Source of the DNA: a virus | Lineage: Duplodnaviria > Heunggongvirae > Uroviricota > Caudoviricetes | Reading direction: 5' to 3' (one strand) | IMG/VR virus record: IMGVR_UViG_2657245112_000002 | Coordinates: 1-5,961 of that record | Length of the DNA stretch: 5,961 nucleotides | Shown here: in pieces, positions 1-2,130 of the stretch | Layout of the letters: the number at the start of each line of letters is the position of its first letter | How positions within the stretch are numbered: position 1 is the first letter of the stretch | The notes under the pieces: model-generated | Told to the model about the DNA's origin: nothing | Seen by the model: only the letters and a program-made list of their open reading frames with translations | Databases searched by the model: none | Program-made: the position numbers and the translations under genes

Positions 1-8
1 CTCAACAA

Positions 9-156
9 TGAATTTTGTGATGCGGTGCCTGGTGCCTCCAGGTGACGTTAACCAGTTAACAATTAACGCCGGATACAGAGAATCCACCCATAACACTGTT
101 TTTGGTTTTAACTGTTCCGCGTGCGCTGAGCCGCATTCACCGCATCACAAAATTCA
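9..156. repeat. 19-bp perfect inverted repeat pair (9-27 and 138-156) flanking a 110-bp spacer with nested palindromes
   Basis: tgaattttgtgatgcggtg at 9-27 is the exact reverse complement of caccgcatcacaaaattca at 138-156. The spacer holds palindrome cctgg-tgcct-ccagg (28-42) and GTTAAC-ca-GTTAAC-aa-TTAAC (47-65). Function unknown. Confidence 0.8.
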
Positions 157-558
157 CTTTTAAAAAAGGGCGGCAGAGCAGTCACGGAGTAAAACTGATA
201 CCGCCAAATGTCACCAGAATATTGATAACAGAGGGCGTTGTAGCGGGGTTGTCACTTAAGCGTATGGTCAACCTGACAACCCGGTGTCCTCAACTGGGGA
301 AGGAATAACCCCGCCATACTTACCGCCGCGCCATTTCGCGGAGTGCCACAACCGGAAGCGCACGTTCGAAGAAATCTAACGACAAGCCTTCTAAGGGAAA
401 GAGCTTCGCCGTACGCTTTCGCGTTATGCCCTGACTTTTCAGGGAAATATCCTTTCAGTAAACTGTCAGTACCGGATTCTTATCCGTGTCCGGCGCACGA
501 CCACACGTGACAGCGTGTTGGTCTCCATTTTTAACCCAGAACCTCAATGGAGGATAAA

Positions 559-768
559 ATGCCAAACAAAAAAAGAAATCCGCTTATTGAAAAACAGATT
601 GAATGCCTGGTAAATCAACTCAGGCAATCAGGGTTATTAAAAACTCATTCAGAGTTGAGGCTCACAGAATCAGCATTCGACGATAAATTAAATAATGTCC
701 TTTATAATGGCATTATTGATTTTAATCGTTCTGTTGGTCGCCGCGGCCCTGCTGGTGTTTCCTTATAA
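559..768 (+). CDS. hypothetical small protein, 69 aa (73 aa if the ATG at 547 is used)
   Basis: ORF-track frame 547..768. GGAGGA at 549-554 lies 4 nt upstream of ATG 559; stop TAA 766-768. AT-rich like the neighbouring 216-aa gene. No motif recognised by eye. Confidence 0.4.
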   Translation: MPNKKRNPLIEKQIECLVNQLRQSGLLKTHSELRLTESAFDDKLNNVLYNGIIDFNRSVGRRGPAGVSL

Positions 769-1419
769 TTACCAGTCAATCCAGAGTGGACCGTGTTCAG
801 CGTAAATATAACTGTACACATCCAGATTATATTTGTGGTCTGTTAAGAACAGGCCGCAAATACATGCCGAAGCTTCCAGTGCAGCGGCTCTGTTACTGAA
901 TAACCATGTAGCAACATTCCAGCGTTTTTCTGCATCCCAGTCTTTCTCAAGGCCTGATACCATGAAGAAACCGTTAGTGTTGCCATCAAATAATTCTGTT
1001 TCCAAATTTTTAAGCAATGCCTGATGGACTCTTGCCAGGTATTCCGCCGGAATTTCGCCACGAATTCTGATGAGATTGTCATAAACAAACATGTTCCCCG
1101 CATATGGCGATTTTTCTTTCTTGTTTTTTAAACCAGCATCATGAGCAAACTGATCAATTTCTTCTTCCGTTGGTTTCGTATTGATGTTTTGCGCTGTCGT
1201 TTCTGCAATTTTATTTGCCACACTCTCTGAGTCGTGTTTATTTATAGACGCACAGAAATACAATCCGGTAAACGCATCGCGCACATTACGAGCCATATTA
1301 TCAGTGTCTTTTTTCGTTACCGATTCCAATTCAAGTTCGTTCAGACGATGACGAAGTGTGTGTGCTGCAATCTCCTGGATTGAAGGAGGTAAATCTTTAA
1401 ATTCCATCGTCAACCTCAT
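769..1419 (-). CDS. hypothetical protein, 216 aa (212 aa from ATG 1407); unknown function, candidate prophage cargo/defence protein
   Basis: Longest ORF on the minus strand here. ATG 1419..1417 overlaps the TAA of the upstream small gene (TAATG); alternative ATG 1407..1405 is preceded by GAGG with a 6-nt spacer. Sampled stretches are about 35-40% GC versus about 60% in a sampled stretch of the DnaC-like gene. Hydrophilic; no catalytic motif recognised by eye. Confidence 0.75.
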   Translation of the reverse strand: MRLTMEFKDLPPSIQEIAAHTLRHRLNELELESVTKKDTDNMARNVRDAFTGLYFCASINKHDSESVANKIAETTAQNINTKPTEEEIDQFAHDAGLKNKKEKSPYAGNMFVYDNLIRIRGEIPAEYLARVHQALLKNLETELFDGNTNGFFMVSGLEKDWDAEKRWNVATWLFSNRAAALEASACICGLFLTDHKYNLDVYSYIYAEHGPLWIDW

Positions 1420-1842: not shown

Positions 1843-2130
1843 TTAGTTCTGCTTGGGGAATTGGCGTCTGGCGTGTACTACACTCACGATCTCAATGCTT
1901 AAAGTGGCTACACGGTAAAGAATTATATAGTTAGGGTGAGCTACAATCTCACGCAAGCCAGGTACTCTGTCGCTTGGTGGGTATAAATACGGGTGTTCGG
2001 ATAACGGCAGCACACACCCCCTTAATCGCTGCCATAAGCGTTCTGCCGCATCTATGTCGAAACGAGCAATATAACTAGTTATATCATCTAGGTCGGTATC
2101 TGCGCTTTCAAGCCATAACACGGGTAACAT
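1843..2130 (-). CDS. parE2: ParE/RelE-superfamily type II toxin, 95 aa (ParE2-like)
   Basis: Sequence pattern typical of ParE toxins (…DLDDITSYIA…LREIVAHPNYIILYRV…IEIVSVVHARR). Start ATG 2130 lies 3 nt after the antitoxin stop, with GGAG inside the antitoxin 3' end. Symbol assigned from locus architecture, not exact sequence recall. Confidence 0.85.
   Translation of the reverse strand: MLPVLWLESADTDLDDITSYIARFDIDAAERLWQRLRGCVLPLSEHPYLYPPSDRVPGLREIVAHPNYIILYRVATLSIEIVSVVHARRQFPKQN

Follow-up and report, generated by a model that had tools for sequence, protein, structure and literature searches.

DicF is among the earliest bacterial small RNAs (sRNAs) to have been described, and how RNase III and RNase E process it was reportedly worked out in 1990. 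E. coli RNase III requires about two helical turns of uninterrupted duplex, and phages carry RNase III sites in their early polycistronic mRNAs, as in the lambda N-leader, lambda sib and T7 R1.1-R5. In Qin, a prophage of E. coli K-12, the dicBF operon is laid out as ydfABC, 340 nt, dicF, 174 nt, dicB and ydfD. According to the passages on DicF in PMC5069750 and PMC9438474, which cite Faubladier 1990, RNase III processing of the full-length mRNA yields a 72-nt DicF, and termination together with RNase E yields a 53-nt form. In Ragunathan 2023 (10.1101/2023.04.14.536235), formation of a 190-nt DicF precursor was shown to depend on RNase III and that of the 53-nt form on RNase E; RNase III is described there only on the 5' side of DicF, and no ydfABC-dicF-dicB species was detected. 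Table S1 of Gordon 2017 lists an RNase III-dependent site, flagged as known, in the dicF-dicB intergenic region (MG1655 1649470), at a low read support of 0 wild-type reads versus 26 in the rnc mutant. The main text of Altuvia 2018 mentions DicF solely as a previous case of processing by RNase III.

The window analyzed here, a whole stretch of 5,961 nt, is 100% identical to a prophage located beside rspB in E. coli UTME-3 (locus L001). On the minus strand of this locus we found, in order, a DUF1391 gene (ydfA-like), a 212-aa gene, the region under study, dicB, a DUF1482 gene (ydfD-like), a large exonuclease gene, xis and int. The start codon of dicB lies 10 nt to the left of window position 1 (L001 5991, corresponding to window position -9), and its Shine-Dalgarno sequence GAGGA is found just left of the window. 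The Qin operon has the same order as the window locus, as does phage Tritos, in which dicF is annotated. Read on the minus strand, positions 1 to 546 correspond to the non-coding central part of an early-left (dicBF) operon in a lambdoid prophage. An earlier note on this DNA had considered about 0.5 kb without an open reading frame to be unusual; it is in fact normal for a dicBF operon, K-12 Qin being equally free of coding sequences over the 340 nt, dicF and the 174 nt. The likeness to Qin extends to the order of leader, dicF, spacer and dicB, to the arms of the inverted repeat described below, to the core hairpins and to the upstream helix, and DicF and the spacer are 97-98% identical in the two loci. 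However, Qin carries ydfB and ydfC upstream, whereas the window carries the 212-aa phrog_2151 gene (769-1407, minus strand) and an antisense phrog_4274 open reading frame.

The latter encodes 69 aa (559-768, plus strand), is of unknown function, is listed in RefSeq as a hypothetical protein and is accompanied by a promoter-like site at 531-560 (plus strand). It is convergent with the phrog_2151 gene and thus lies antisense inside a leftward operon; it may be a moron-like insertion. Farther along, positions 1843-2130 (minus strand) and their neighbors hold a gene for a toxin of the RelE/ParE family and small hypothetical genes between the operon and the repressor region, according to the L001 annotation.

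The earlier note had also stated that positions 1-546 contain no convincing gene, and this holds: the single open reading frame on the plus strand (8-163, ATG start, 51 aa) matches no family and is disrupted in the majority of close homologues. As a candidate gene it was rejected, as it gave no Pfam or PHROG match. Its full-length frame is present in 7 of 28 homologues, a count that leaves out both copies of the window's own sequence (L001 and L188), and the others show an in-frame stop, a frameshift or no ATG. The suggestion that the remnant of a gene enters from the left fails as well, since the left neighbor in L001 is dicB, on the minus strand and starting beyond position 1, and the plus-strand frame is interrupted in homologues.

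By scanning all Rfam families, we identified a DicF sRNA gene at positions 219 to 168 on the minus strand (RF00039, 77 bits against a gathering score of 48, E 2.7e-16), with a match that covers model positions 1-52 of 52. The gene lies in a dicBF-type operon, on the same strand as dicB and upstream of it, the dicB start being 176 nt downstream in L001, and the annotations of K-12 and Tritos place dicF at this very position. The 5' end of the sRNA carries its seed region. A rho-independent terminator hairpin is predicted by folding at positions 205 to 169, followed by a U6 tract at positions 167 to 162. DicF of the window differs from that of Qin at two bases, and the tail of its terminator reads U6A4 (162-167 and 158-161) instead of the U5A3 found in K-12 and most homologues, by which the long stem discussed below could gain one A-U pair at its base. 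A generic promoter and terminator scan was uninformative for this region: it returned zero terminators, missing even that of DicF because its loop and inner stem are outside the rules of the scan, and promoter-like sites at chance level. A tRNA search found none. Scanning genome contigs with a DicF pattern of 17 specified bases gave only chance matches in unrelated phyla; K-12 itself has a G at the A of this pattern.

The inverted repeat that had first drawn attention to this region, a perfect 19-bp match between 9-27 and 138-156, was borne out by the sequence and by a repeat search. It is nested within longer arms of 24 nt (4-27 and 138-161) that are 92% complementary and 110 nt apart. By a simple estimate (about 1.5e5 position pairs multiplied by 4^-19), a perfect 19-bp inverted repeat is expected by chance about 5e-7 times in 546 nt. 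The repeat region also folds far better than shuffled sequences on either strand (z of -5.7 on the minus strand and -6.9 on the plus strand), none of 200 shuffles being as good. Of the four suggestions made for this region, only the sRNA locus comes near, and loosely so: it is there in the form of DicF, but the sRNA adjoins the repeat and is not within it, and the repeat would act as a processing stem in the DicF-dicB transcript. The first reading had missed both that the minus strand is the informative one and that a classic sRNA gene occupies positions 168-219. The practical lesson is that a known sRNA gene can stay hidden when only one strand is read.

On the minus strand, the two arms form a helix that closes the spacer between dicF and dicB. 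The 5' arm (161 to 138, RNA AAAAGUGAAUUUUGUGAUGCGGUG) pairs with the 3' arm (27 to 4, RNA CACCGCAUCACAAAAUUCAUUGUU), which ends about 15 nt ahead of the dicB Shine-Dalgarno sequence GAGGA. This helix provides the duplex that an RNase III site calls for on the transcribed strand, with about 20 bp or more of RNA paired almost without a break. It is fully Watson-Crick in the window, whereas the Qin stem has two G·U pairs. We drew related loci from IMG/VR by means of two conserved core motifs and aligned 30 distinct spacer sequences, in which the pairing of the arms is conserved. RNAalifold on these 30 spacers showed the long helix closing a four-branched core (28-137, minus strand), supported by pair counts and resembling the STnc100 RNA. 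The branches are a hairpin at 119-124/130-134, a variable hairpin closed by 71-73/116-118, a GTTAAC hairpin at 44-53/61-70 and a CCUGG-AGGCA-CCAGG hairpin at 28-32/38-42. Two features recognized in the earlier note, the cctgg-tgcct-ccagg palindrome (28-42) and the two copies of GTTAAC (47-52 and 55-60), are present and correspond to the last two of these, each a conserved hairpin of the spacer RNA with compensatory changes. RNAalifold further placed outer pairs between alignment columns 3-8 and 179-184, an extension of the long stem through the U tract; in a read-through RNA, the U6 tract could in this way lengthen the stem by weak U·G and U-A pairs toward the dicB Shine-Dalgarno sequence.

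Among the 30 homologues, 98.7% of the 1290 pair cells hold standard pairs, compared to 31-44% after the partners have been shifted by 1-3 columns. Double (compensatory) changes occur at five pairs, and the observed score was reached by none of 500 shuffles. Shared ancestry accounts for some of the spacer conservation, as many of the homologues are very closely related; over the stretch from DicF to dicB, arms included, the mean column identity across four aligned sequences is 94%. The changes are strand-specific, with 147 G·U cells against 8 A·C cells overall and 57 against 2 in the long stem. In K-12, the two C-to-U changes produce G·U pairs on the dicB-sense RNA, where the other strand would have A·C mismatches. 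The excess of G·U over A·C indicates that the structure belongs to the dicB-sense RNA and argues against a DNA cruciform or a protein site.

A spacer HMM and a second motif scan recovered the same core with quite different closing helices. In one variant (ACAGACCUUGCAAUGCAGUG / CACUGCAUUGCAAGGUCUGU), the helix is perfect over 20-22 bp and its outer 12 bp are unrelated to those of the window. Across 27 distinct long arm pairs from IMG/VR, the helix is 17-22 bp long, mostly 21-22 bp, and almost free of bulges, and at least two Watson-Crick pair types occur at 12 of 22 helix positions; eight further distinct arm pairs are short (9-14 bp). As judged from these sequences, it is the length of the helix, not its sequence, that is conserved, and the dicF-dicB spacer behaves as a selected RNA structure. 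The spacer element is present in 4630 of 5426 complete E. coli genomes (about 85%), and nothing is annotated at the spacer in 24 of 25 sampled RefSeq rows.

The processing known from K-12 can be laid onto this structure; what is said here on the need for RNase III and RNase E, and on the 53-, 72- and 190-nt species, is taken from the literature on that 97-98% identical locus. Counting the 72 nt given in the passages cited above from the annotated 5' end of K-12 DicF, and converting through the K-12 alignment, the 3' end would follow ...GAAUUUUGU, at about window position 147. This falls 14 nt into the 5' arm (161 to 138), inside the stem. We therefore infer an RNase III cut between positions 147 and 146, which would have a partner cut, staggered by 2 nt, near position 16 and would leave dicB with a leader of about 25 nt. 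The coordinate of Gordon 2017 (1649470) lies about 16 nt past the cut so placed, just inside the core. Since Ragunathan 2023 detected no species spanning ydfABC, dicF and dicB, read-through, and hence use of the stem, may be rare.

Upstream of dicF, between the 212-aa gene and the antisense candidate moron on one side and the sRNA on the other, lies an untranslated leader (546 to 220, minus strand) in which no coding sequence is annotated in K-12 or L001. Its alignment with K-12, Tritos and the IMG/VR loci showed that it is conserved from about position 497 downwards. The RNase E site that gives the DicF 5' end would be at 219/220, at the edge of this leader, the RNase E dependence being taken from 10.1101/2023.04.14.536235. 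RNAalifold on 28 homologues revealed a conserved, imperfect helix of about 21 bp with a variable loop (347-369 with 406-428, minus strand), in which changes stay G·U on the minus strand. By arithmetic (168 + 189), the 5' end of the 190-nt precursor falls at about 357, in the 3' strand of this helix, which would then hold the RNase III cut that makes this end. With a stem cut at about 147 and an upstream cut at about 357, DicF would be flanked by two RNase III helices. Taken as a whole, positions 215-560 fold no better than shuffled sequences (z -1.16), and only the helix 347-369/406-428 is well supported. Two small hairpins described for this part of the region in the earlier note are present in the sequence, yet ccctga-cttt-tcaggg (429-444) is kept only partly in the consensus fold, and ccgcg-ccattt-cgcgg (326-341) is replaced there by an alternative pairing. 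As independent elements they were unsupported, and we regard both as minor, partly alternative local pairings of the DicF precursor leader.

Taken together, the region is best read as the non-coding part of a dicBF operon that encodes DicF, with the inverted repeat serving as an RNase III processing stem ahead of dicB, a reading to which we give a probability of about 0.8. Observed in this study are what DicF is and on which strand it lies, the context of the operon, and the conservation, covariation and strand specificity of the helices. The feature as such is already known, comprising the gene for DicF and the structures at which RNase III processes it in a dicBF operon. Transcription would proceed leftward from a repressor-controlled promoter on the right, through the leader (546 to 220), DicF (219 to 168) and the 160-nt spacer into dicB. 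Most transcripts would end at the DicF terminator and, after RNase E has trimmed their 5' end, give the 53-nt DicF. In read-through transcripts, the arms 161 to 138 and 27 to 4 would pair once the 3' arm has been made, so that a helix of about 21-24 bp closes the spacer. RNase III would cleave the helix at about 147/146 on one arm and, in a staggered manner, near 16 on the other, and would thereby part the 72-nt DicF from a dicB mRNA with a leader of about 25 nt. The second helix (347-369/406-428) would be the RNase III site yielding the 190-nt precursor.

By analogy with the lambda N leader, cleavage of the closing helix would probably expose the Shine-Dalgarno sequence of an mRNA encoding a toxic product, here DicB, or alter how stable that mRNA is. 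In several variants the helix can reach the border of the Shine-Dalgarno sequence by way of the U tract, so cleavage may raise translation or alter mRNA stability. The proposed site would share with those of lambda and T7 a helix of about two turns in an early transcript, a cut by host RNase III that divides one functional unit from the next and an altered expression of the neighboring gene, the last being our proposal. Unlike the lambda and T7 sites, which are simple hairpins with an internal loop, the window helix is long-range, enclosing 110 nt, and closes a multi-branch core.

The unit found downstream of the long-stem copies varies: it is dicB, kilR, a gene for a hydrophobic peptide of 35-36 aa or for a 94-aa protein, or the IsrK and C4 RNAs. 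The kilR gene belongs to phrog_294 and encodes the Kil septation inhibitor. In the kilR-type loci (L095:5721-5776; L129, L144, L148, L162 and L216), a DicF-like sRNA with a similar terminator hairpin but a different 5' seed (UGUGUGUAGUC...) takes the place of DicF and scores 39 bits on Rfam DicF, below the gathering score of 48. At L100:5046-5234 and L162:5482-5670, IsrK and a C4-type antisense RNA come after the spacer element in place of a small protein gene; in L100 an open reading frame resembling Rha or an antirepressor comes after the two RNAs. An IsrK and C4 pair is also found at L212:4878-5066, about 3 kb from a short-stem core and on the opposite strand, and thus does not follow the element. 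Six loci (L169, L116, L121, L234, L279 and L214) have unannotated hydrophobic single-helix peptides of 35-69 aa (e.g., MSRNGIRSLVIVLAICLVAWSATIIKILHVTGVLNG) in the position of dicB or kilR. These peptides matched nothing in PHROG and are candidates for small toxins or membrane proteins.

The nature of these downstream genes, division inhibitors or small hydrophobic peptides, would also suit a helix whose role is mainly translational or insulating, in which a compact spacer fold abutting the Shine-Dalgarno sequence of dicB or kilR limits the toxic protein and cleavage by RNase III is incidental. Several variants agree with this, as their helix can continue over the U tract and stop 0-2 nt short of the Shine-Dalgarno sequence, or run into it, giving duplexes of 25-30 bp. 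However, the outer extension consists of weak U·G pairs and is poorly conserved, and a helix of about 21-22 bp with almost no bulges fits what RNase III needs and not what occlusion needs. Moreover, an RNase III-dependent site is reported in the dicF-dicB spacer, both in Gordon 2017 and in the passages on DicF in PMC5069750 and PMC9438474. We thus consider such a main role unlikely, while noting that it is compatible with a processing stem and that the two do not exclude each other.

The core of the spacer also raises the matter of its relatives. Positions 154 to 14 on the minus strand matched STnc100 (Rfam RF02076) below threshold, scoring 37.4 bits where the gathering score is 47 (E 1.4e-5, model positions 21-154). 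The long-stem spacers of three other loci scored 34-36 bits, canonical STnc100 copies 69-161 bits, and among the loci scanned beyond the window no long-stem spacer matched STnc100 at the gathering level. Assignment of the spacer to the Rfam family was rejected, since its score is below gathering and it has neither the 5' 20 nt nor the family's own 3' terminator (model 155-206); the dicB ribosome-binding site follows the 3' arm instead. The multi-branch core is nevertheless shared, as seen in the cmscan alignment, in the covariation of the terminal hairpin and in nhmmer intermediates, the spacer HMM having recovered intermediate forms at E 1e-22 to 1e-24. The points of likeness to STnc100 and to the related PasD sRNAs, which occur in Stx-type and other lambdoid prophages, are a GGUGAAU junction, a GUUAAC-type hairpin, a CCNGG-AGGCA-CCNGG hairpin and the closure of the core by a helix starting GUGG/CCAC. 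In the CCNGG-AGGCA-CCNGG hairpin, the two N positions are complementary in 134 of 134 IMG/VR matches, with a swap from U-A in the 43 spacer-type sequences to G-C in the 91 canonical ones. The two forms differ in that canonical STnc100 has a closing helix of 9-10 bp and its own terminator and lies in the late region, often in tandem beside tRNAs, whereas the window element has a helix of 21-24 bp, lacks a terminator and lies in an early-left operon.

According to the literature, canonical STnc100 copies lie downstream of stx2, and the family is now being connected with Shiga-toxin phages and with clinical outcome. PasD is linked to STnc100 in a 2026 preprint about Pas sRNAs, which leaves DicF unmentioned, and our literature search found no paper connecting the dicF-dicB spacer to STnc100. 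Within our loci, tandem arrays of 2-4 canonical units (69-161 bits) stand beside phage tRNAs at L097:2265-3380, L107:3121-3798 and L109:342-1038. At L212:8010-8232 and in about 20 similar IMG/VR loci, a core with a short stem of 9 bp is directly followed by a DicF-like seed and terminator, and such a unit reaches 43 bits on STnc100, just under gathering. This arrangement suggests that a core joined to a DicF-like 3' module may make up the STnc100-type sRNAs, with the order of dicBF reversed. We tentatively propose, as a possibility that we rate below even odds, that the spacer is a diverged member of STnc100/PasD whose helix has grown from about 9 bp to two turns, forming an RNase III-cleavable module that recurs in lambdoid early-left operons before toxic small proteins (DicB, KilR and the 35-aa membrane peptides) and that may both gate their translation and release a stable, STnc100-like RNA of about 125 nt with its own function.

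A related reading, which takes the spacer for a regulatory RNA of the STnc100/PasD family, either excised or standing alone, and the stem for a means by which RNase III releases a structured, trans-acting RNA of about 125 nt, appears improbable to us. It would account for the consistency of the sub-threshold matches in the window and the three other loci, for the intermediate forms and for the hairpin that covaries throughout the 134 matches. However, all of these spacers stay below the Rfam gathering score, the 5' 20 nt and the terminator of STnc100 are absent, and no transcript of about 125 nt is reported in the literature that we examined.

The mosaic architecture of these loci bears on whether the element could instead act as DNA. 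In L156 and L198, homology to the spacer starts only inside the variable loop (at ..ATCCGRCGTTAATTG..), and L196 is a chimera of DicF, a K-12-type 5' arm, a kilR-type 3' arm and kilR; the three are mosaic recombination junctions within the element. Such breakpoints inside the element, variable loop included, together with nearly identical spacers that have different sRNAs upstream and different genes downstream, are what one would expect of a conserved linker, recombination hotspot or cruciform promoting the exchange of lambdoid modules. A DNA-level recombination site had been among the first suggestions for the repeat, but as the primary function it was not supported, because the 147 G·U against 8 A·C cells point to selection on one RNA strand and because stems of unrelated sequence keep their pairing and length, which recombination driven by homology does not need. 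We therefore regard it as very improbable.

Hardly any credence can be given to a miniature inverted-repeat transposable element, or to a 51-aa plus-strand gene at 8-163, in spite of the terminal inverted repeats enclosing 110 nt and the ATG-initiated frame, as the frame is broken in most close homologues and lacks a Pfam or PHROG match, nothing suggestive of target-site duplications was noticed (without an explicit test), and the element, far from being dispersed at unrelated sites, always sits between an sRNA terminator and the next operon unit. Its copy number tracks that of the whole region, with 10,410 places in E. coli genomes for the 165-nt element versus 11,372 for the 560-nt region, which indicates that it does not disperse on its own.

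With the DicF gene and its processing structures already described, what is left as new is the relationship of the spacer to the STnc100 family and the recurring pattern of a two-turn helix before a toxic small gene. If true, the link to STnc100 would join two prophage RNA families and would suggest that the division inhibitors DicB and KilR are under RNase III control.
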